From: Eubacteriales bacterium
Lineage (GTDB): Bacteria > Bacillota > Clostridia > Oscillospirales > CAG-272
Length of the DNA: 38,375 nt
NCBI GenBank assembly: GCA_045653865.1
Contig: JAZOMJ010000173.1
Span: 1-38,375 of the forward strand
Direction of reading: 5' to 3'
Shown here: in pieces, positions 3,288 to 31,693 of the stretch
How positions within the stretch are numbered: the stretch's first letter is position 1
Layout: the number at the start of each line of letters is the position of its first letter
Position numbers and translations under genes: made by a program
Notes under the pieces: model-generated
Database searches by the model: none
Told to the model about the DNA's origin: nothing
What the model saw: the letters and a program-made list of their open reading frames with translations, nothing else

Positions 3288-4286
3288 ATGACAAGAACAC
3301 TGACTATTTTAATTTGCGCCATTATGTGCGTAACGCTCCTTGCGTCTTGTTCCCTTTTGCCTTTCAAACAAGAAGATGAAAGCGAACACGAGCACACAAA
3401 AGGCAATTGGATAGGTGATGTACACGGTCATTGGCAACCGGAATTCTGTAGTTTAGACGGTTGCGTTTTTGGACCTTCGAAAAAAGAATATCATATTGAC
3501 AATGACGCAAACAACGTCTGTGACATTTGCGCCTATCAATATGAGTATATTTTCAAGCTGAATGCCGACAAAACAGAATACGAGCTTGACAGTGTCGGTC
3601 CCGGATATAAGGGCGGCAAGGTAGTTATCCCTGCAGAGCATAACGGACTTCCCGTTACAGAGATTGGATACGGCGTATTCAAAAGCGATGATTACAAGCT
3701 GACTTCCGTAGTGATTCCCGATAGCATTACGCTGATTGACGATGATGCGTTTGAAAACCAGACCGCCCTTACAAGCATTATTGTAGGAAAGAATGTTGTC
3801 ACCATCGGAGTGAGTGCGTTTGAGGGTTGCACGAATCTGCAAACCGTTATCATCGGCGATGCTACCGAAAACATCTACGCTCACGCTTTTGACGGCTGTA
3901 CAGCGCTGGAAACCGTTATTCTTGGTAACAACATCAAGAAAATCGGCGGTTCGGCATTTGAGGAATGCACAAGTCTTAAGACGATAACAATCCCTGCCTC
4001 TATCGAGGCGTTAGGCGCGTGGGTCTTTTACGGAAGCAGTGTCACCAATATTTACTTTGGCGTTTCTGCTCCCACAGAAATTTGGGATGAGAAATGGGCA
4101 GAGGGTCTTCGTGAGAACGTAAACATCAATTGGACAAAGACAGCCGAATGCAATCATCAATGGGACGATGGTGTGGAAATTGAGAGCGGAACCGGTGCTT
4201 ATAGAATGGAATATACTTGCCAATTGTGCGGTGAGAAAACCCAAGAAATCATAACCATTATTCCGCCGGAAGGACCGGAAAGCTAA
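3288..4286 (+). CDS. BspA-type leucine-rich-repeat lipoprotein with N- and C-terminal Cys/His modules
   Basis: RBS AGGAGGA. Lipobox MTRTLTILICAIMCVTLLASC. LRR_5/BspA-like repeats: VVIPDSITLIDDDAFENQTALTSIIVGKNVVTIGVSAFEGCTNLQTVIIGD...IGGSAFEECTSLKTITIPASI. Cys/His modules lie at 3384-3533 and 4143-4253. Confidence 0.75.
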   Translation: MTRTLTILICAIMCVTLLASCSLLPFKQEDESEHEHTKGNWIGDVHGHWQPEFCSLDGCVFGPSKKEYHIDNDANNVCDICAYQYEYIFKLNADKTEYELDSVGPGYKGGKVVIPAEHNGLPVTEIGYGVFKSDDYKLTSVVIPDSITLIDDDAFENQTALTSIIVGKNVVTIGVSAFEGCTNLQTVIIGDATENIYAHAFDGCTALETVILGNNIKKIGGSAFEECTSLKTITIPASIEALGAWVFYGSSVTNIYFGVSAPTEIWDEKWAEGLRENVNINWTKTAECNHQWDDGVEIESGTGAYRMEYTCQLCGEKTQEIITIIPPEGPES

Positions 4287-4445: not shown

Positions 4446-7400
4446 ATGAAACGACCTATAAAAATATCAGCGTTTTTATTGGCATTTTCCATTTTGTTGG
4501 GCATTGCACCTACGGTATTTGCCGAGGAATTGCCATCGGCAATCATCGACGAAAATTTCGACAATATGACGCGCAATCAAGAACCCGACGGCTGGGTGGT
4601 TGAACCCATTGGTCGCAATGACGCAGGAGTCATGGTAACTGCATCACCAAACAGTATTCAAGGAGGTAATGCTATGCGCATTGAAGACAATTCAACTGAA
4701 TTTGAAAAGCCTGCTCTGGCTTGCAAAACCTTTGCGCCATTGGCTGATGTAACTCTTTCGTTTGACTATTATTTGGAAAGCGTAAAAGGTGCAAACGCGT
4801 TTGCACTTGCCAGCGGTGGTTCTGCCACGCGGCAAAAGCGTGTCAACATTGCTACATTTGACAATGGAGACGAAACTGCAACCTTGAAATATTTTGACAC
4901 CGCGCAATATAAGTGGATTGCCACGCCCAAAACAGACATGCAAAAAGGAACTTGGTATTCATTCAAAATCATCACAAATGCCAATTCCGGCTCTGCAGAT
5001 CTCTACCTCGACGGCACCAAGCTTTGCGAAATTTGGGCTGACCAAAGCATTTTGACGGTTGATAGGGTTCTTTTTCATACCAATAGCAAAGCAAGTATCA
5101 ATGATGTATTTTATATCGACAATGTAAAGGTGGCAAAGGCGGTATCCTCTGTTACCGATTACGCGATTGAAGCGTGCGAAAGCGGAAAATTCGGTTTTAC
5201 CGCAACACTTTCGAATGTAAGTGACTTTGAATTTGCTTTGATGTCAAACAACACCTATGCTTTTTCGATTTCTGCCAACGAGGACGGCACTCTTTGCTAC
5301 CGTCGCGATAACCTTTGGATTCCTTTTAGTGCCGCGGGTGCAGTTCGTGCCAATCAAGAATTGAAAATTGCAATTGATTTGCCTCCCGAACGAAACGTTG
5401 ATTATGCACGCGTATATGTCAATGACGTTTATGTGGGAATGGCAATTTACACAAACAAGTTCACTACCATTACTGCCCTTCGCTTTGAAAGTGGCGAAAC
5501 CTTTCGCGTTTGTGACATTTGGACGGGAGATTCGGATGGCATTACACAAATGCCCGCCCGCACCGAAAGCCAACCCGTGGTATACGTTCCCGAGGTGATT
5601 CCCTCTACTTCTTTGACCTGCAGGTTGGATTACGAACCTCAAATCGGTGTTATGTACCCCGATGACGGTGATGTTTATTTGGATACGAGAGTCACAAGTG
5701 TTGGTGTAGACCTTGGCTACAAGCAAAAGGTCAATGCCATTCGACTCTATGACAGCGACAACGAGGTTTTCCCCCGCGCCAACCATTTTACCGTTTGGCA
5801 AAGTGATGACAATCAAAATTGGAAAGAAATCAGCGGCTTCCTCTTCAATCGCATCACCGAAGACAACAAATGCCAAATTTTGATTGAATTTTCGGGCGTT
5901 GAAGCGCGTTATATCAAAGTCAATTACACCGATTTTGACGGAGAATCCAGCATTCATTTGACAAATCTTGCCACCTGCATTCGTGCGGAACGCTATATTA
6001 CACGTCAATGGCAACTCGCCGCTACGCCTATGCTTGCACAAAATGACCTCTCCCCCAATTCAACCTCAATGGCGCAGGTCCTCAAACAAGAACCCCTCAC
6101 GGTTGTCAAAGGTGATAGCATCGGGCTTTGGTTTGGCATTCACAGTGCAGTGGAAGCAATTGAAATACAAGCCGACGGCATCGATGCACTCGGTAAGGAT
6201 GCCTTTGCACTCTATTACAGTAATGATAACGTAACGTATACGCAAATCGAAAACACAACCTTGAGCCTTGGTGATGGCACCTGGCGTTTGACCTTTGATA
6301 GCATTCAATGCGGTTATTTAAAGCTTTATGCTATCGCTGATGCAAGCATTTCCTTGGCAAGTCTTGCAGATGGTATTCACGCGTATTCCTCGCAAGAGGT
6401 TCTCACAGGACATATTATGCAATCGACCGACAGAGGCGCTGACGGAGACTTTTACGCAATGCCCGATGGAACACTTGTTGCGGCTTACAACGGTTTTTCT
6501 TCTCAAGTCGGTTCTAGCGGTGGTGGCGATGCCTCCGATGCTTCCCTCAATTTCTTCACATCCACAGATGGTGGATATACTTGGAGTGCAGGTGAGAGCT
6601 TCTTGCTCAAAAATGAAGGCAGCTTGAACATACTCAATCCCACCTATATTTGGCTTGCAAACGGCGAACTTGGTCTGATTTATTGCGAAAAGGAAGAAGC
6701 CGAGATTTGCAACATTTACATTCGCCGCTCCACCGATTACGGAGCAACCTGGGGAGATGCGCAACGCATTACCGATGCACCGCAAGGCTACACTATTCTG
6801 CCAAGCGGCCACCGTGTTCTTCGTCTTTCTTCCGGTCGCATTTTGTTGCCGGTTGCCTATTCGGTTACTGTAAATGACGTTTATGGCTCTGACCGTGCCA
6901 TCGGTTACGTTTGGTATTCGGATGACGAAGGTTATACTTGGCACCGTTCTACGGATGCTTTGACACTTCCCCACGCGGCACTGGAACCCTCTGTGGCAGA
7001 GCTTTCCAACGGAAATATTTTGCTCTCTTTGCGCACCCGTGAAGAACGCGTGATTTATCAATCCATTTCCACCGACGGTGGTTTGACTTGGGCACAACCT
7101 GTTAAAACCGATATTCAATCGCCCAGTGCAACCAACACCGTTATGGCACTCCCCGCAACGGGGGATATTGCTCTGTTTTGGAACAATGATTTCTCTGCAA
7201 GCGGTTCCGAAAGACGCCCCTTGACGGTTATTCTTTCTTCGGACGATGGCCTTACTTACCACAACATTCGCAGTTTGGTGGATTGTGATTATCCCACACC
7301 TTGGCCAAGCGTTGCTTTTTATGGCAGAAGCGTATTTTTGATGCACGGAAACGAAACCCACGTGCGTGTGTTTGATATTGCCACACTCTACCAAACCACA

Positions 7401-7832
7401 TCGGGCAAAACAACCACCGCTGACCTCCCTCTTGCAGCAACACCAACGGCTGTTTTGGATGAAGAGAGCGGATGGCTCACGGGGCTTTCTGACACAATGC
7501 AGTATTCTCTTGACGGTGGCAAAACTTGGGTGTTTGCAGGTGGTAATCGCGTGCTCCTCAATCTTGAAACCGTTAGCGAGAATGAGATATTCATCAAAGA
7601 TATTGGTACCGCCCAAACGGCGCCCTCAAATGCACAAAGCATTCCACTCGCTAGAAAGGATACAGAGCAACAAACTCCCGAGACTCCCACAACGCCCGAC
7701 ATCCCCGAAAACCCGACTGTACAAGATAAGCAACCTACCAATTCGATTGAAAAAATTACCGCTTTTGCAATTGGTTGTGCCCTGGCAGTGGGTTTGATTA
7801 CCTTTATCATCATCAAACGCAAAAAGAGCTAA
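4446..7832 (+). CDS. Secreted BNR/Asp-box beta-propeller protein (sialidase superfamily-like) with N-terminal lectin/CBM-like domains, Pro/Thr linker and C-terminal transmembrane anchor
   Basis: Signal peptide MKRPIKISAFLLAFSILLGIAPTVFA-EE. Asp-boxes STDGGYTW, STDYGATW, SDDEGYTW, STDGGLTW, SSDDGLTY and SLDGGKTW. Discoidin/CBM-like segment AIRLYDSDNEVFPRANHFTVWQSDDNQNWKEI. C-terminus PETPTTPDIPENPTV...ITAFAIGCALAVGLITFIIIKRKKS. Confidence 0.75.
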   Translation: MKRPIKISAFLLAFSILLGIAPTVFAEELPSAIIDENFDNMTRNQEPDGWVVEPIGRNDAGVMVTASPNSIQGGNAMRIEDNSTEFEKPALACKTFAPLADVTLSFDYYLESVKGANAFALASGGSATRQKRVNIATFDNGDETATLKYFDTAQYKWIATPKTDMQKGTWYSFKIITNANSGSADLYLDGTKLCEIWADQSILTVDRVLFHTNSKASINDVFYIDNVKVAKAVSSVTDYAIEACESGKFGFTATLSNVSDFEFALMSNNTYAFSISANEDGTLCYRRDNLWIPFSAAGAVRANQELKIAIDLPPERNVDYARVYVNDVYVGMAIYTNKFTTITALRFESGETFRVCDIWTGDSDGITQMPARTESQPVVYVPEVIPSTSLTCRLDYEPQIGVMYPDDGDVYLDTRVTSVGVDLGYKQKVNAIRLYDSDNEVFPRANHFTVWQSDDNQNWKEISGFLFNRITEDNKCQILIEFSGVEARYIKVNYTDFDGESSIHLTNLATCIRAERYITRQWQLAATPMLAQNDLSPNSTSMAQVLKQEPLTVVKGDSIGLWFGIHSAVEAIEIQADGIDALGKDAFALYYSNDNVTYTQIENTTLSLGDGTWRLTFDSIQCGYLKLYAIADASISLASLADGIHAYSSQEVLTGHIMQSTDRGADGDFYAMPDGTLVAAYNGFSSQVGSSGGGDASDASLNFFTSTDGGYTWSAGESFLLKNEGSLNILNPTYIWLANGELGLIYCEKEEAEICNIYIRRSTDYGATWGDAQRITDAPQGYTILPSGHRVLRLSSGRILLPVAYSVTVNDVYGSDRAIGYVWYSDDEGYTWHRSTDALTLPHAALEPSVAELSNGNILLSLRTREERVIYQSISTDGGLTWAQPVKTDIQSPSATNTVMALPATGDIALFWNNDFSASGSERRPLTVILSSDDGLTYHNIRSLVDCDYPTPWPSVAFYGRSVFLMHGNETHVRVFDIATLYQTTSGKTTTADLPLAATPTAVLDEESGWLTGLSDTMQYSLDGGKTWVFAGGNRVLLNLETVSENEIFIKDIGTAQTAPSNAQSIPLARKDTEQQTPETPTTPDIPENPTVQDKQPTNSIEKITAFAIGCALAVGLITFIIIKRKKS

Positions 7833-26769: not shown

Positions 26770-29049
26770 TTATTCGGTGCGGAACCAGTAATAGTTGTAG
26801 TAAGTCGATTTCAAATACTGTGCCGCGGTTGCGGGGTTGGATAGGTCGGAGGCGGAGATTGCAATGACTCTTGTTGTATCGTAGTAATACTCACACTCCC
26901 ACCCGTTCGGGTTTGCAAAGGTGACACTCGTCAAAGAGGTGCAATTTTTGAACGCCCAATAGCCAATGCTCGTGACGCTATCGCCAATGGTGACACTCGT
27001 CAAAGAGGTGCATTCAGAGAACGCCCACTCGCCAATGCCTCTTACACCATCGGGAATAGTGATGCTTGTGAGGCGAGAGCAATCGGCAAATGCATAACCG
27101 CCAATCACTTTGGTATCGGGGTGAATTGCGTAAGTGCTCATGTTTTTGTTGGTGACTGCAATCAAAACTGCGTAGGGATTTGTTTCATCGCCAACGTATT
27201 TGCCCAATTCATATTCGGTATAGAGAGCAGAATTACAGCCATCGAACGCACAATCACCAATGCTCGTGACGCTATCGGGGATGGTGACACTCGTCAAAGA
27301 GCGGCAATATTGGAACGCATACTTGCCAATGCTCGTGACGCTATCGGGGATGGTGACACTCGTCAAAGAGTCGCATGAATAGAACGCAGAATTGCCAATG
27401 CTCTTGACGCTGTCGGGGATGGTGATACTCGTCAAAGAGGTGCAATCATAGAACGCAGAATTGCCAATGCTCTTGACGCTATCGCCAATGGTGACACTCG
27501 TCAAAGAGGTGCAAGAATAGAACGCAGCACCGCCAATGCTCGTGACGCTATCGGGGATGGTGACACTCGTCAAAGAGCGACACTCATAGAACGCCATATT
27601 GCCAATGCTCGTGACGCTATCGGGGATGATAACAGATGTAATGGTTTGGTTGCTTTTGAATGCCTCTTGGTAAATCACCCTTACGGGCAAACCGTTGTAC
27701 TCCTCGGCAATGCGCACCTTGGTGGCGGTGCCGTTGTAGGCAATTACCTCGGCATAGGTGCCGTCGGTGGAAATGCCGTAGAAAATGCCCTCGGTTGCAC
27801 CAATTACCATATTACACGCGGTGCAAATGCCGTTATCATCAAGTGTGTGCTCTGCTTTGCCGTTGATAGCAGAACAGAATTGGCATTTGAACCAATGGAA
27901 GCTATTATCGGTAGTGTAAGTGCTTGCAAAGGTATGGTCAGCAATAAGCGTCTCGTTGCAAACCTCTACCTTGCCACAATTTTGACAGGTTTTTGTATCG
28001 TAACCGCCGGCTTGGCAGGTTGCGGGAGTGGTTACCGTTACAAAATTGTGGTCTTCGTATGTTCCCTCTTTCCACTCGATGGCAGAACACTCTGCACAAA
28101 TGCGATAGAACAGCACTTGCTCACAGGAAACAACTTGGCCAAGCGTGTATTCTTTCCACTCGCCAAAGCTATGCACGTGCTCCTCTTTGGGAACAACAAC
28201 GGTTTTTACGCTACCATCGGTGTAGGTAATTACAAAATTGCCGTCTTCGTCAATTTCAATTTTTTCAATGCCTACGCCCTGTTCGCCTTGGTCGCCCTTG
28301 TCACCCTTTTCACCTTGGATGCCTTGGTCGCCCTTGTCGCCCTTTTCACCTTGGATGCCTTGGTCTCCCTTTTCGCCTTGCTCACCTTGGGGACCTACGG
28401 GGCCTTGCTCACCTTGGTCACCCTTGTCACCTTTATCACCCTTATCGCCTTGGTCGCCTTTATCGCCTTTTTCGCCTTGGATGCCTTGCTCACCTTGGGG
28501 ACCTTGCTCACCTTGAGGGCCTTGAATACCCTGCGGTCCTTGAGGTCCTTGCTCACCTTGGACACCTTGTTCTCCTTGCGGTCCTTGGGGGCCTTGCACG
28601 CCACCCTCCGAAGAGCCGCTACCTGCGGGACCTTGAGGACCTTGCACGCCTTGGAGACCTTGCGGTCCTTGAGGACCTTGCACGCCCTGCTCACCTTGAG
28701 GACCTTGAACGCCTTGCGGTCCTTGTGCGCCTTGTGCGCCTTGTGCACCTTGGTCACCCTTTTCGCCCTTTTCACCTTGGATGCCCTGCTCGCCTTGAAC
28801 ACCTTGCTCGCCTTGGTCACCCTTTTCCCCTTGGAGACCTTGCTCACCTTGGTCACCCTTTTCACCTTGGATGCCTTGTTCGCCTTGTTCTCCCTTTTCG
28901 CCTTGGGCTTTTATGTCGGTTTTTTCACCGTTGATGACCCAATAGCCGTCTTCACTGATGTAAATTTCTGTCGGCTTTTGTTCGTTACACGATGCCAACA
29001 CGCATACAACTGCAAGCATCAGTGCAATCACACATAGGATTTTTTTCAT
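26770..29049 (-). CDS. Chimeric surface lipoprotein: collagen-like G-X-Y triple-helix repeats + Cys/His modules + BspA-type leucine-rich repeats
   Basis: Start set at ATG 29049 (RBS AAGGAG). Lipobox [21 protein letters not shown]. About 68 G-X-Y triplets ([12 protein letters not shown]...). Cys/His region HVHSFGEW...CTACN. Nine 23-aa repeats of the type [23 protein letters not shown]. Confidence 0.85.
26941..27125 (-). repeat. Three tandem 69-bp coding repeats (LRR units, distal block)
   Basis: The motif CCAATGC/CCAATCA recurs at 26963, 27032 and 27101, an exact 69-nt period. Confidence 0.7.
27235..27648 (-). repeat. Six tandem 69-bp coding repeats (LRR units), high nucleotide identity
   Basis: CCAATGCTC(G/T)TGACGCT(A/G)TCG... 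recurs at 27257, 27326, 27395, 27464, 27533 and 27602, an exact 69-nt period. Long stretches such as GGTGACACTCGTCAAAGAG are identical between units. Confidence 0.85.
28270..28902 (-). repeat. Collagen-like G-X-Y coding repeat (~211 aa, one GSGSSEGG interruption)
   Basis: Strict 9-nt and 3-codon periodicity (CCTTGG/CCTTTT.. on the plus strand). This periodicity creates long artefactual ORFs in other frames on both strands. Confidence 0.9.
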
Positions 29050-29081
29050 TTTCCCTTTCTCCTTTTTGATTGTTTTTCGGT

Positions 29082-29115
29082 GAAAATAAAAAGTGCGCCA
29101 ACCGGAGTCGGCGCA
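29082..29115 (-). promoter_or_regulatory. Terminator-like hairpin inside the 5' leader of the collagen/LRR gene
   Basis: On the minus-strand RNA, GTGCGCC-N10-GGCGCAC is followed by TTTTTATTTT, about 30 nt upstream of the RBS. It partly overlaps an alternative 10-bp pairing TTTTTCGGTG / CACCGAAAAA (29112-29121 with 29072-29081). Confidence 0.45.
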
Positions 29116-29139
29116 CCGAAAAACGCAAACCCCAATTGT

Positions 29140-29304
29140 CGCCAAACAAAACTTAACAAGTACAAAGAAAACTCCTTGTTCCCACCAAGCGGAATTTGCA
29201 TTTTTTCCAAATTCGAAATGATGAAAACAAGAAAAGGGTATAGAACCCCCTACATAAAAATAGCGAGTTTTCTTCCATACTTGATTATTAAGTTTTGTTT
29301 GGCG
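29140..29304. repeat. 17-bp perfect inverted repeat pair enclosing ~131 bp
   Basis: CGCCAAACAAAACTTAA (29140-29156) is the exact reverse complement of TTAAGTTTTGTTTGGCG (29288-29304). The pairing is extended by CAAGTA (29157-29162) / TACTTG (29278-29283) after a 4-nt bulge. Confidence 0.85.
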
Positions 29305-29309
29305 TATCC

Positions 29310-29337
29310 ATTATAGCACAAAAAAACCGATTTGTAA
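29310..29337 (-). promoter_or_regulatory. SigmaA promoter with extended -10 for the collagen/LRR gene
   Basis: On the minus strand: TTACAA (rc 29332-29337), 16-nt spacer, TGcTATAAT (rc 29310-29318). The predicted start falls at the outer edge of the distal IR arm. Confidence 0.5.
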
Positions 29338-29442
29338 ATAGTCTACCCAAAAAATGTTTTCATTGCATAAGAATTATTCTCCAAATTTTTATGCAATTAT
29401 TTTTATTTTTTACAAAAAAATCCCCACAAGCGCGTAATTTTA

Positions 29443-29485: not shown

Positions 29486-31693
29486 ATGAACGGCTTCAAA
29501 AAATTTCTACTGGCGTTGGTTTGCGTGATGTTGATTGCTTGTCTCATTGGCGGAGTTGTGTTGGTTGTTAGCGGTAACACTCGCTATTTTGAAGGCGAAG
29601 CGGAAGCATATTATCAAGAACTGCTTGCCATGGGCTTTCCCGAAGATTATGCGCGCCCCTTGACCGAATTACATCTGCTCCACCCCGAATGGATATTCAC
29701 TCCTCTGCACATAACCGAGGGCAATCCTCTTTATCGTTGGGATTACGTTATCCATCAAGAAACCAAGGATGACGACACAAACCTAATTTCGAGTGCAGAG
29801 GACTATAGCGCATATCGTCATCCCATCAATTCTAACACATACGATTCTGGCTACTATCAAGCATCTCGTGAGGCTGTTGAATATTTTATGGATCCCCGCA
29901 ACTTCCTCAACGAAACAGATATTTTTCAGTTTTATGACCTTGCGGTCGCAAGTAGCGTTGGTGTTGACCAAATCGCGGCTGTGCTCGCTGACACGTTTAT
30001 GGAAGATGCCACTCTTGAAAACGGCAAAACCTATGCCGAATATTTCCTTGAAGTTGGAAATGAACTTGGCATCAATCCCGTTTATCTTGCCGTAAAAGCA
30101 CGTCAAGAGCAAGGTGTTGAAGGGCTTTCGCCCGTGCTTGGCGGTGAATGTGGCTCTCTCCTTGCCGAATACTATGCCAACGGTACACAAGAAACCGAAA
30201 GCGGCAGAAAAGTTCTTGCTCCCACCGAAGGTTATACATCGGAAGACTTGCTCACGCTTGATGGATATTACAATCTCTTTAACATCAAGGCGAGCGGAAA
30301 CGGGCTTTTTGCCATTTATCACAATGCAATGAAGCGCGCAACAGAAGGCACCGAACATATGGCTGACGCTTGGAACTCTCCCTCTTGGAACACGCTTTGG
30401 AAATCTTTGTACGGTGGTGCCTATACCATCAAAACAAGCTTTATTGACCGTTATCAAAACACCGTCTACTTGCAAAAGTTTAACGTTGACAGTCGTGCGG
30501 CTGACCGCAACTTTTGGGGGCAATATATGCAAAACGTAGCGGGTTCTTTGACAGAATCTCGCACGCTCTTTAGTGCACTCGCTTCCTCGGGGGTCCTCGA
30601 CGGATATTGCAATTTCCTCATCCCCGTTTATGCGGGTATGCCCTCCACCCCTTGCGCTGACCCTGCAAACGGAAATTGTTCCTATCTTGCAACCGCACCC
30701 AAGAGATATGATAGTGCATCCTTATTTGCACTCCCCATATTGCAAACCGCTACCGAAACCATTTACGATACCATTGAGGTATATGCCGGGGATTCGTTGC
30801 ATCTGCTCGGATTGGTTAGCCATTCCTACGGTGTGAACCGCGTGGAATACCGTTGGGACGGCGGTGAATGGACAACCTTGTGCAAAGGTGGCGCATTTGA
30901 TAGTTTGCTTGAGGTTCCCTATGCAGCAGGTACTTCGCACATTTTAACCCTACGCACCATTGCCGATTACGATCATTCGGACGGTTATAAAAAATCCAAC
31001 TATTCGGTTCTTGCGGCTGTTTTTTATGTGCAAGTCATAGAGCGTCCCGAAATTCAAATTTCGATTACCAATCACGAGGATACGACATCCACCACTCACC
31101 CTGCAGGCACTGCTTTTACGCTCCCTGTTTGTGAAGAAGAAAATTTTCTCGGTTGGTACGGTTCCGATGATACATTTTTTCCATCAGGTGCAATAATTTC
31201 CCCCGAGGAAAACATCACCTTTACGGCACTTTATATGCAACTTGAACAGATGTACGGTGCCGCCTTGGTCTTTTCCAACGACGAAACACATCTTCGCTTT
31301 TATGCCGCCGCTGAAATTGACATCATTGAAAAGCTTTCTGTTTCAAGCGCAAAAATTTCATTTTCGGCAACAGTTGTAGGCGATGATGGATGCGAAGAAA
31401 TTGTCCCCGTTACGTTCAGCGGCATTGAGGATGCTCGCGGCACCTCTTGGCGCATTCTTTCTGCCGAGACCAAGGCGCTTGATGAAAAACTTTACAACCA
31501 AAACTATTCTATGCAATTTTCGGCAGTTTGCACTTACTCGAATGGTAGTGTGCAAACTTCAAACTTCAATGGCATATACTGTCAAAGAAATGCAACACAA
31601 GTTGCAAAAGCCGCACTTGCGGACAAAAACATTCAATATGACAGTAACATTGTTGAGCACTTAACAAAAATTCTCTCTGTTACACCTACTTGA
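29486..31693 (+). CDS. Membrane-anchored putative peptidoglycan hydrolase (GH73-like N-acetylglucosaminidase domain) with long C-terminal beta-rich region
   Basis: N-terminal TM FLLALVCVMLIACLIGGVVLVV. FMDPRNFLNETDIFQFYDL...INPVYLAVKARQEQG...YYNLFNIKA...AWNSPSWNTLWKSLYGGAYTIKTSFIDRYQNTVYLQKFNV resembles glucosaminidase-domain autolysins. ATG 29486 is 8 nt from the RBS and is preferred over GTG 29483. Confidence 0.6.
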   Translation: MNGFKKFLLALVCVMLIACLIGGVVLVVSGNTRYFEGEAEAYYQELLAMGFPEDYARPLTELHLLHPEWIFTPLHITEGNPLYRWDYVIHQETKDDDTNLISSAEDYSAYRHPINSNTYDSGYYQASREAVEYFMDPRNFLNETDIFQFYDLAVASSVGVDQIAAVLADTFMEDATLENGKTYAEYFLEVGNELGINPVYLAVKARQEQGVEGLSPVLGGECGSLLAEYYANGTQETESGRKVLAPTEGYTSEDLLTLDGYYNLFNIKASGNGLFAIYHNAMKRATEGTEHMADAWNSPSWNTLWKSLYGGAYTIKTSFIDRYQNTVYLQKFNVDSRAADRNFWGQYMQNVAGSLTESRTLFSALASSGVLDGYCNFLIPVYAGMPSTPCADPANGNCSYLATAPKRYDSASLFALPILQTATETIYDTIEVYAGDSLHLLGLVSHSYGVNRVEYRWDGGEWTTLCKGGAFDSLLEVPYAAGTSHILTLRTIADYDHSDGYKKSNYSVLAAVFYVQVIERPEIQISITNHEDTTSTTHPAGTAFTLPVCEEENFLGWYGSDDTFFPSGAIISPEENITFTALYMQLEQMYGAALVFSNDETHLRFYAAAEIDIIEKLSVSSAKISFSATVVGDDGCEEIVPVTFSGIEDARGTSWRILSAETKALDEKLYNQNYSMQFSAVCTYSNGSVQTSNFNGIYCQRNATQVAKAALADKNIQYDSNIVEHLTKILSVTPT

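Follow-up and report, generated by a model that had tools for sequence, protein, structure and literature searches.

A previously unclassified family of structured leader RNAs, probably transcription attenuators, ahead of accessory genes in gut and rumen Clostridia

What does a perfect inverted repeat do when it lies between the promoter and the start codon of a surface-protein gene? The question is raised by a 38,375-nucleotide stretch of DNA from an Eubacteriales bacterium (GenBank assembly GCA_045653865.1, contig JAZOMJ010000173.1, positions 1 to 38,375; here called the window), in which a divergent intergenic region of 435 bp separates a lipoprotein gene on the minus strand (26770-29049) from a gene for a 735-amino-acid (735-aa) protein on the plus strand (29486-31693). 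An original prediction, made from this sequence alone, had offered two answers for the lipoprotein leader: a phase-variable inverton or an unclassified riboswitch. We propose instead that the region is the 5' leader of the lipoprotein mRNA and one member of a conserved family, so far unclassified, of transcription attenuators that act in cis, a reading to which we give a probability of about 0.68. The evidence is comparative and comes from sequence; it covers the family and its fold, three alternative pairings, their mutual exclusivity and matched energies, the spacing of the promoter and the arrangement of the downstream gene.

The gene begins at the ATG at 29049, and its 759-aa product has the collagen and leucine-rich repeat (LRR) lipoprotein character originally assigned to it, with a lipoprotein signal peptide, collagen repeats, a Cys-rich region and BspA-type LRR_5 repeats. 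The parts of the leader and the gene are given here in the order of the predicted transcript, all on the minus strand and numbered within the window.

29310-29338, minus strand: sigma-A-type promoter, with -35 TTTACA at 29338-29333 and a TG-extended -10, TGcTATAAT, at 29318-29310
29288-29304, minus strand: 5' arm of closing helix P1, CGCCAAACAAAACTTAA
29265-29283, minus strand: 5' strands of P1b (CAAGTA, 29283-29278) and P1c (29275-29265) in the minimum free energy (MFE) fold
29235-29263, minus strand: junction hairpins P2a (29263-29250) and P2 (GGGGG...CCC, 29249-29235)
29175-29231, minus strand: long hairpin P3 with an apical hairpin, in which segment 1 (GAATTTG, 29214-29208) pairs with CAAATTC (29198-29192)
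29191-29206, minus strand: segment 2, AAAAAATGCAAATTCC, at the apex of the rod and complementary to GGGGTTTGCGTTTTT of the tail
29157-29174, minus strand: 3' strands of P1c (29174-29164) and P1b (TACTTG, 29162-29157)
29140-29156, minus strand: 3' arm of P1, TTAAGTTTTGTTTGGCG
29118-29139, minus strand: tail (segment 3), ACAATTGGGGTTTGCGTTTTTC, the most conserved stretch of the family, with an invariant run of five or six T
29099-29138, minus strand: antiterminator hairpin, in which CAATTGGGGTT.GCGT pairs with GCGC.GACTCCGGTTG; mutually exclusive with the terminator
29083-29117, minus strand: intrinsic terminator, with an 11-bp GC-rich stem (29117-29092), a UCCG loop and the U-tract TTTTTATTTT (29092-29083)
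29072-29082, minus strand: post-terminator segment CACCGAAAAAC, an 11-bp complement of GTTTTTCGGTG (29124-29114), present only in read-through RNA
26770-29062, minus strand: regulated gene, with Shine-Dalgarno sequence GGAG at 29062-29059 and ATG at 29049

All the elements that had been read from the sequence alone are indeed there. The promoter (29338-29310) has the form TTTACA-17-TATAAT with the TG extension and matches 11 of 12 consensus positions. The inverted repeat (29140-29156 and 29288-29304) is perfect over 17 bp and, with its CAAGTA/TACTTG extension, reaches 20 nt at 95%; a search for the 17-mer with up to three mismatches found no site in the window beyond the two arms, with 0.36 chance matches expected. 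Together P1, P1b and P1c form a closing rod of about 34 bp. Between the rod and the ribosome-binding site lies the GC-rich hairpin with its U-tract, and the second pairing described as competing with it, GTTTTTCGGTG with CACCGAAAAAC, extends over 11 bp (29124-29114 with 29082-29072) and is kept in a subset of the family, about 10-12 lipoprotein-type loci. The 267-nt leader folds at -102.6 kcal/mol, compared with -58.9 +/- 4.7 kcal/mol for dinucleotide shuffles (z = -9.4), and none of 200 shuffles was as stable. A leader peptide was considered and rejected: the 41-codon open reading frame at 29278-29153 has no Shine-Dalgarno sequence and its ATG is not kept in relatives. As a separate observation, the P2 hairpin (AGGGGGTTCTATACCC) and the T-rich run beside it (29233-29251) receive a weak terminator-like score, as they also do at locus L096 (L numbers denote the loci compared).

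The leader has many relatives. The 17-mer arm, scanned against one genome per species, matched 88 loci, of which about 59 were single chance matches in unrelated phyla. The other 29 were homologues of the whole unit of about 255 bp, 76-87% identical, in about 28 metagenome-assembled genomes (MAGs) from animal and human guts that are labelled Clostridia, Eubacteriales, Oscillospiraceae, Acutalibacteraceae or 'Ruminococcus'. Extra members came from a metagenome scan with a 19-mer of arm plus tail, and a BLAST search of GenBank phages gave one partial match, MT835503 ('Bacteriophage sp.', human faeces), which is a divergent member of the family. In IMG/VR, the same 19-mer gave one chance match; nothing came from a strict tail pattern, and a looser one of tail and terminator retrieved two genuine members (L121 and L123) and four chance matches. 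A plasmid collection held no match to the element. The family's copies, at least 45 at 70-87% identity, come from the roughly 28 MAGs of gut or rumen Clostridia, from metagenome contigs and from three phage-like contigs. In the alignment, homology spans the region from the -35 to the U-tract and gives way to divergence beyond it; the flanks differ between species, and promoter, RNA and terminator are kept as one unit.

Two kinds of interior occur within this unit. The 'main type', to which the window belongs, has a multi-way junction, the small hairpins P2a and P2 and the long hairpin P3, and P2a, P2 and the J-regions are confined to it. In the 'short type' (L004, L056, L097, L110, L113 and L121) an unrelated simple hairpin takes their place. 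What the divergent members have in common is the promoter spacing, P1, the hairpin of segments 1 and 2, the tail, the antiterminator and the terminator. The tail is almost invariant across the family (ACAAUUGGAGUUUGCGUUUUUC), and the terminator has a UUCG loop in most relatives and is followed by 5-8 U.

No known riboswitch family matches the leader, as had been supposed at the outset: a scan of the region against Rfam 15 at E <= 10 gave none, and its best score was 22.8 bits, to an unrelated family with a gathering score of 57. The families covered include c-di-GMP-I/II, T-box, 6S, ydaO, raiA and EAR. At gathering thresholds, the whole window yielded the transfer-messenger RNA (tmRNA; 2425-2816) alone, and the same scan of 15 member loci found nothing on the element. 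Nor is the motif described in the literature retrieved by sequence strings and keywords or in the first 200 supplement files of Fremin & Bhatt 2021. Judged by these comparisons, the element is a previously unclassified family of structured leader RNAs.

The fold of the leader is supported by covariation. A covariance model (R1) built on 32 sequences recovers 43 forward matches with scores of 44-252 bits. In the consensus fold of its alignment, 92.5% of 2897 cells are paired, compared with 41-51% in slid controls, and double changes occur in 64 of the 74 pairs. The covariation score of 0.352 stands against 0.06-0.09 for slid and 0.141 for shuffled alignments and was reached by none of 500 shuffles. 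Helix by helix, P1 (helix 1) is 96.3% paired over 43 sequences with double changes in 10 of its 17 pairs; P1b and P1c (helices 2 and 3) have compensatory changes in all 17 pairs, with 87-93% of cells paired; and the terminator (helix 10) has 98.3% of cells paired and double changes in 10 of 11 pairs. P2a and P2 correspond to helices 4-6 and P3 to helices 7-9, with compensatory changes in P3 such as CTGCCA/TGGTGG, GCTAA/TTAGT and CTACCA/TGGTAG. Compensatory changes are already plain in an unfitted MAFFT alignment, and frequent G-U pairs identify the transcribed strand.

At its 3' end, the leader can take either of two exclusive forms. The RNAalifold consensus on the unfitted alignment is the antiterminator and not the terminator: the tail (CAAUUGGAGUU.GCGU) pairs with the 5' strand of the terminator, its loop and part of its 3' strand (GCGC.GACUUCGGUUG). 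The MFE form of the full window leader also contains this hairpin. The antiterminator has 93.6% of its cells paired over 43 sequences, where slid controls reach at most 62%, and double changes occur in six pairs; the most divergent members rebuild it from other sequence (AAAUGAGC/GCUCAUUU in L113 and AAAUAGGA/UCCUAUUU in L110). Mean energies are -15.7 kcal/mol for the antiterminator and -16.4 kcal/mol for the terminator, and the 3' region has the antiterminator as its MFE form in 22 sequences, compared with 20 for the terminator. The universal run of five or six T in the tail and its matching A-run may, speculatively, serve as a pause or nucleation site. The long P1, which the riboswitch answer had cast as the switching helix, does not appear to play that part. 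It ends 1 nt before the antiterminator, with no overlap, and its 5' arm was tried and rejected as an alternative partner of the tail or the terminator (mean z = -0.3). Because P1 stops short of the antiterminator and its 5' arm has no conserved alternative partner, it is better seen as a scaffold.

A third pairing connects the tail with the interior. In the window, segment 2 (AAAAAAUGCAAAUUCC, 29206-29191) is complementary to GGGGUUUGCGUUUUU of the tail, with an RNAduplex energy of -20.6 kcal/mol (z = -4.0). Among relatives this complementarity extends over 15-20 nt at -15 to -24 kcal/mol, and it is the best duplex between interior and tail, at the homologous site, in 41 of 43 members, all but L108, in which P3 is missing through a natural deletion, and L096 in its reverse reading. 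Variation is scarce in the column-aligned main group, where 95.5% of apex-tail cells are paired and sliding leaves at most 69%. When each of 14 divergent members is matched with its own partner, the energies add up to -253.7 kcal/mol, compared with -193 +/- 11 kcal/mol for permuted partners, and none of 20000 permutations was as good. The two partners change together in L015 (CAC/GUG), L091a (UGC/GCA), L004 (AAAAAACACAU/AUGUGUUUUUU) and L110 (AAAAAGUG-CAUCC/GGAUGACACUUUUU), and likewise in L113, L121, L097 and L056. Segment 2 is itself paired or half-paired with the upstream segment 1, a mimic of the tail, in an apical hairpin, which the main type forms from GAAUUUG/CAAAUUC and the short type from a U-run and an A-run. 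The natural variant L108 (96-252, 157 nt) keeps P1, P2, the tail and the terminator and is without P3 and segment 2; under our model, it is predicted to have lost the anti-antiterminator.

The position of the promoter relative to the helix is likewise fixed. From the extended -10 (TGnTAnnnT) to the first G of P1 there are 6 nt in 35 copies and 7 nt in 6, which accounts for 41 of 41 promoter-bearing copies. Because this spacing is fixed, the transcript is predicted to start at the first nucleotide of the helix, G29303 or C29304 in the window, and a start fixed there would explain why the promoter is kept within the conserved unit. At the other end, a co-oriented Shine-Dalgarno sequence and start codon follow about 10-75 nt past the U-tract in about 44 of 46 copies, a distance that leaves no room for a separate promoter in most loci.

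These observations suggest how the leader might work. Transcription would start at the first base of the closing helix of about 34 bp (P1, P1b and P1c), which encloses the variable interior. In Firmicutes, 5'-terminal stems block 5'-dependent decay, and the helix at +1 would probably shield the RNA 5' end. The pairings 1:2, 2:3, 3:4 and 4:5 would then alternate as in classical attenuators. With segment 2 locked at the apex (1:2), the free tail would form the antiterminator (3:4) and polymerase would read into the gene, a direction of the logic that we infer. With segment 2 capturing the tail (2:3), the terminator (4:5) would form and an RNA of about 215 nt would be released. As antiterminator and terminator are nearly isoenergetic, a modest input could tip the balance. 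Candidate inputs are a protein or RNA factor, the kinetics of transcription or pausing at the T-run, and the terminated leader acting in trans on nascent leaders. A small-molecule ligand is an unlikely input because no pocket is common to the main and short types and the regulated genes are heterogeneous.

Several considerations weigh against an attenuator. The start site, termination and read-through are all predicted. The members were found by arm or tail patterns, so that the conservation of those parts is partly ascertainment bias, and the covariance-model alignment was fitted to the structure, so that its pair counts are inflated. Most MAGs show a single copy, which is unusual for a regulon-type cis element, although the search needed an exact 17-mer and MAGs are incomplete. 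Some copies stand in tandem, each with its own promoter and terminator, which would suit an independent small-RNA gene at least equally well. Finally, segment 2 always lies at the tip of the rod, farthest from the tail, and intramolecular pairing between the two would require the rod to be opened or folded back. Folding of P3 back along P1 is conceivable in the junction-containing main type and looks sterically difficult in the simple-rod short type. A candidate alternative to an intramolecular pseudoknot is that terminated leaders build up and pair in trans with the tails of nascent ones. Taken to its full extent, this would make the element a self-contained 'auto-antisense' attenuator, in which the terminated leader of about 215 nt, protected at both ends, would use the segment at the tip of its rod to capture in trans the tails of nascent leaders from the same copy or from matching ones and so force termination. 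We advance this version tentatively, as a possibility on the unlikely side. If it is true, the accessory and prophage genes of gut Clostridia would take along with them a module for negative feedback or dosage compensation made of RNA only, and the sequence classes of tail and segment 2 would be specificity groups.

Could the repeats act as DNA instead? Perfect inverted repeats that sit between a promoter and an open reading frame are what an inverton would present, with a recombinase encoded elsewhere flipping the segment of about 131 bp between the 17-bp repeats, as in the cwpV and flgB switches of Clostridioides difficile. The original prediction had named the comparison of homologous leaders as a way to separate RNA from inverton, and that comparison favours RNA: compensatory changes are present and both orientations are not. 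The interior lies in one orientation in 42 of 42 promoter- or tail-anchored copies from independent assemblies, and reverse-strand covariance-model scores of 20-41 bits, a weak palindromic echo of P1, contrast with the forward scores of 44-252 bits. Inversion would be expected to have a phenotype, in that a flipped interior would exchange segment 2 for tail-like sequence and abolish the anti-antiterminator pairing (the reverse orientation of L096 is unpaired); the orientation of the interior is also functionally constrained, because one of its segments pairs with the tail. The arms at first seemed invariant because the search had used the arm itself. Members found through the tail carry mutually compensating arms (GUCACACGAAC/GUUCGUGUGAC, GCGACACAAU/AUUGUGUCGC and GCCAAAACAAAUCAC), and in distant members the arms compensate like an RNA helix and unlike a recombinase site (GTCACACGAAC/GTTCGTGTGAC in L118, GCGACACAAT/ATTGTGTCGC in L121, and also L123). 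A sequence-specific recombinase or operator site in the arms was rejected on account of these different, compensating arms. Conservation also reaches well past the repeats on both sides, and the window encodes no recombinase, as had been noted from the start. A tyrosine integrase does lie about 1 kb from the element in the phage-like L121 (3482-4603), but it is an ordinary phage-type integrase and occurs at that locus only. An odd rearrangement of the arms is seen in L096 (238-510), a metagenome contig of 1.35 kb on which a single P1 domain has on its two sides different, outward-facing tail/terminator/gene units and no promoter; it may derive from deletion or recombination between two head-to-head copies, or the contig may be chimeric. 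With these points on both sides, we regard an inverton as very improbable. Most improbable of all is a mobile or recombination element, either a miniature inverted-repeat transposable element (MITE) with 17-bp terminal inverted repeats or a folded site like attC. With a length of about 165 bp and perfect repeats at its ends, the element would fit a MITE, the outermost heptamers GCCAAAC...GTTTGGC resemble the R''/R' consensus of attC sites (RYYYAAC/GTTRRRY) with one mismatch each, and the module of element plus gene is found in variable contexts and is missing from close relatives. However, the conserved unit is not bounded by the repeats. It runs on for about 35 bp upstream and about 65 bp downstream of them, and the promoter on the one side and the tail and terminator on the other are at least as well conserved as the repeats. 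Target-site duplications are absent, the flanking triplets being ATA on one side and ACA on the other; there is a single copy in the window, and most MAGs show one; neither integron integrase genes nor cassette arrays were found; and strand-specific, G-U-tolerant covariation points to RNA.

Among RNAs, an independent small-RNA gene of about 215 nt would act in trans on other mRNAs or on its own nascent leaders, and read-through would be secondary. Conservation of promoter, RNA and terminator as a unit amid flanks that vary by species is what such a gene would show, and tandem pairs of elements precede a single gene in L003 (2154-2700), L091 (2622-3162) and L095 (2780-3331). Segment 2 would sit on top of a long, stable rod, much as antisense RNAs present their recognition loops, and the RNA would be protected at both ends. 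On the other hand, the co-oriented Shine-Dalgarno sequence and start codon behind about 44 of 46 copies speak for a leader, and a conserved, isoenergetic antiterminator would be needless for a plain small-RNA terminator. Tail-like targets in the window number 7 against 4.7 expected, the close matches being the tail itself and the complement of segment 2 only, and the element is absent at this locus from near-identical strains. We therefore hold a separate small-RNA gene to be unlikely. The tandem partners differ in their interiors and are near-identical in tail/segment-2 specificity. The riboswitch half of the original prediction survives in part: a structured leader with a terminator platform is supported by the covariation and the antiterminator, and a metabolite riboswitch is not, given the replaceable interior and the lack of a metabolic theme among the genes. 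Were the multi-way junction of the main type to bind a metabolite or ion and so set the choice between antiterminator and terminator, one would expect features that are indeed present, namely a 3-4-way junction with conserved unpaired nucleotides, a long-range pairing of loop and platform reminiscent of cobalamin and ZTP riboswitches, and a bistable platform with mutually exclusive terminator and antiterminator. But a simple hairpin replaces the junction in divergent members, which leaves no family-wide ligand pocket, the downstream genes share no metabolic or transport theme, and Rfam gives no match. A metabolite or ion riboswitch is thus distinctly unlikely.

An attenuator of the kind proposed would have familiar parts in an unfamiliar arrangement. 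Like the S-box, T-box and L-box platforms, the pyr and trp leaders and the L20 and L10 ribosomal-protein leaders, the element is a 5' leader with a co-oriented gene directly after it, it sets a terminator against a similarly stable antiterminator, and an upstream segment can sequester the antiterminator strand. Unlike these classical families, of which it is not a member by Rfam, it has a sensor part that is neither a conserved aptamer nor a known protein site, an anti-antiterminator partner at the tip of a rod of about 34-45 bp whose 5' strand starts at the predicted +1, and an interior that can be exchanged freely. The genes under regulation are accessory ones, of surface or phage type. Countertranscript attenuation (pT181 RNAI/II-repC, pIP501 RNAIII, pAMbeta1 and, in pCF10, Anti-Q/prgQ) likewise uses a pairing in the leader to prevent the antiterminator and induce the terminator, and likewise displays the recognition segment on a stable stem. 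Here, in contrast, the 'antisense' segment is on the strand and transcript of the target itself, with no convergent promoter found; the setting is a chromosome or prophage and not the replication control of a plasmid, and its action in trans is a candidate only.

Two further likenesses concern the rod. In cobalamin (L5-L13 kissing loop) and ZTP (pseudoknot) riboswitches, as here, a loop of the 5' domain complements a platform strand beside the terminator, and the domain has a long closing helix. The present element differs in having no family-wide pocket, in a complementarity of 15-20 nt that exceeds a kissing loop and would need the apical hairpin to be opened, and in genes that are not metabolic. 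It shares with the 5' stem-loop stabilizers of Firmicutes (ermC, aprE and similar leaders) a helix that starts at or within 1-2 nt of the 5' end; unlike theirs, its helix runs to about 34 bp, has a regulatory hairpin inside it and is linked to an attenuator. With the C. difficile cwpV and flgB switches it has in common the inverted repeats between promoter and surface-protein open reading frame and an outcome reached through terminator formation in the leader. It is unlike them in the absence of orientation polymorphism and of a recombinase in the window, in arms that act as an RNA helix and in conservation that continues past the repeats.

The genes behind the element, most of them for surface proteins, encode BspA-LRR lipoproteins, Zn-ribbon membrane proteins, MazE/AbrB-like proteins, SHOCT proteins and small Cys-rich proteins, and on a phage contig the downstream gene is for an EcoRI-type adenine methylase. 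To look for orientation polymorphism, we compared loci anchored on the neighbouring 735-aa core gene, and none of 23 related loci had the element. In distant relatives, clpC is directly followed by the 735-aa gene, with no gene between. In L001 and L125, from the sub-clade of the window, an oppositely oriented LRR/lipoprotein surface gene is inserted there, with a similar promoter and a short, unstructured leader of about 55 nt. Relative to L001 (2818-3670), whose flanks are 98.5% identical and whose surface protein has a different N-terminus, the window has exchanged 28082-29386, that is, the promoter, the leader, the signal peptide and the collagen/Cys-rich N-terminal half. Because close relatives have a short leader and distant ones no gene, the leader belongs to an accessory module and is not a core RNA gene. 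By these comparisons, accessory surface-protein genes have a hot spot at the junction of clpC and the 735-aa gene. Other species typically have the element and a single gene between unrelated housekeeping genes or in prophage-like DNA, an arrangement that resembles a moron-like expression cassette.

Some further observations concern these loci. A family of proteins of 62-68 aa recurs behind the leader (L003, L071, L084, L087, L096 and L111); it has no Pfam match, its motif is CLGNG(E/T)(Q/M)GFECCCDECDY(Y/F)L(L/F)CFP, and the L071 copy looks truncated. The element has a tRNA gene as a neighbour in the phage-like L118 (91-162) and an unrelated T-box leader in L113 (65-292). In one MAG, two contigs break inside one copy of the element, L076 at its 3' end and L021 at its 5' end, about 25 nt inside the 5' arm and with about 20 nt of overlap; the assembly graph thus forks inside the element, pointing to strain heterogeneity or to several copies in that genome.

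Elsewhere in the window, a palindrome (ATTGCATAAGAATT / AATTTTTATGCAAT) at 29362-29397, which lies some 25-60 bp ahead of the -35 where the divergent promoters are, may be an operator; L001 lacks it and has a different palindrome at that place. The collagen-repeat coding region has an extreme strand composition (GC skew -0.19 and AT skew -0.37 over 28001-29000). After the tmRNA gene (150.8 bits) come a gene for a second BspA-LRR protein (3288-4286) and one for a BNR/sialidase-like protein of 1128 aa with an F5/8 type C domain (4446-7832), and neither of these two genes has a copy of the leader upstream. The 735-aa and a 736-aa open reading frame were considered as paralogues and rejected, as there is no relation between them.

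If the leader is what we propose, it would bring to light a widespread, uncharacterized family of regulatory RNAs in the uncultured Clostridia of gut and rumen (Oscillospiraceae-like lineages) and in some of their phages; to our knowledge, almost nothing is known about gene regulation in these bacteria. The classes of gene that would be regulated, namely surface proteins and lipoproteins, Cys-rich proteins, Zn-ribbon proteins and a phage methylase, are relevant to interactions with the host and with phages. The architecture is unusual, with a helix at +1, a replaceable interior and three mutually exclusive, energy-matched pairings that would together make a compact and portable promoter-leader module. 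If the pairing of apex and tail acts in trans, it would represent a new way to build feedback into a leader.

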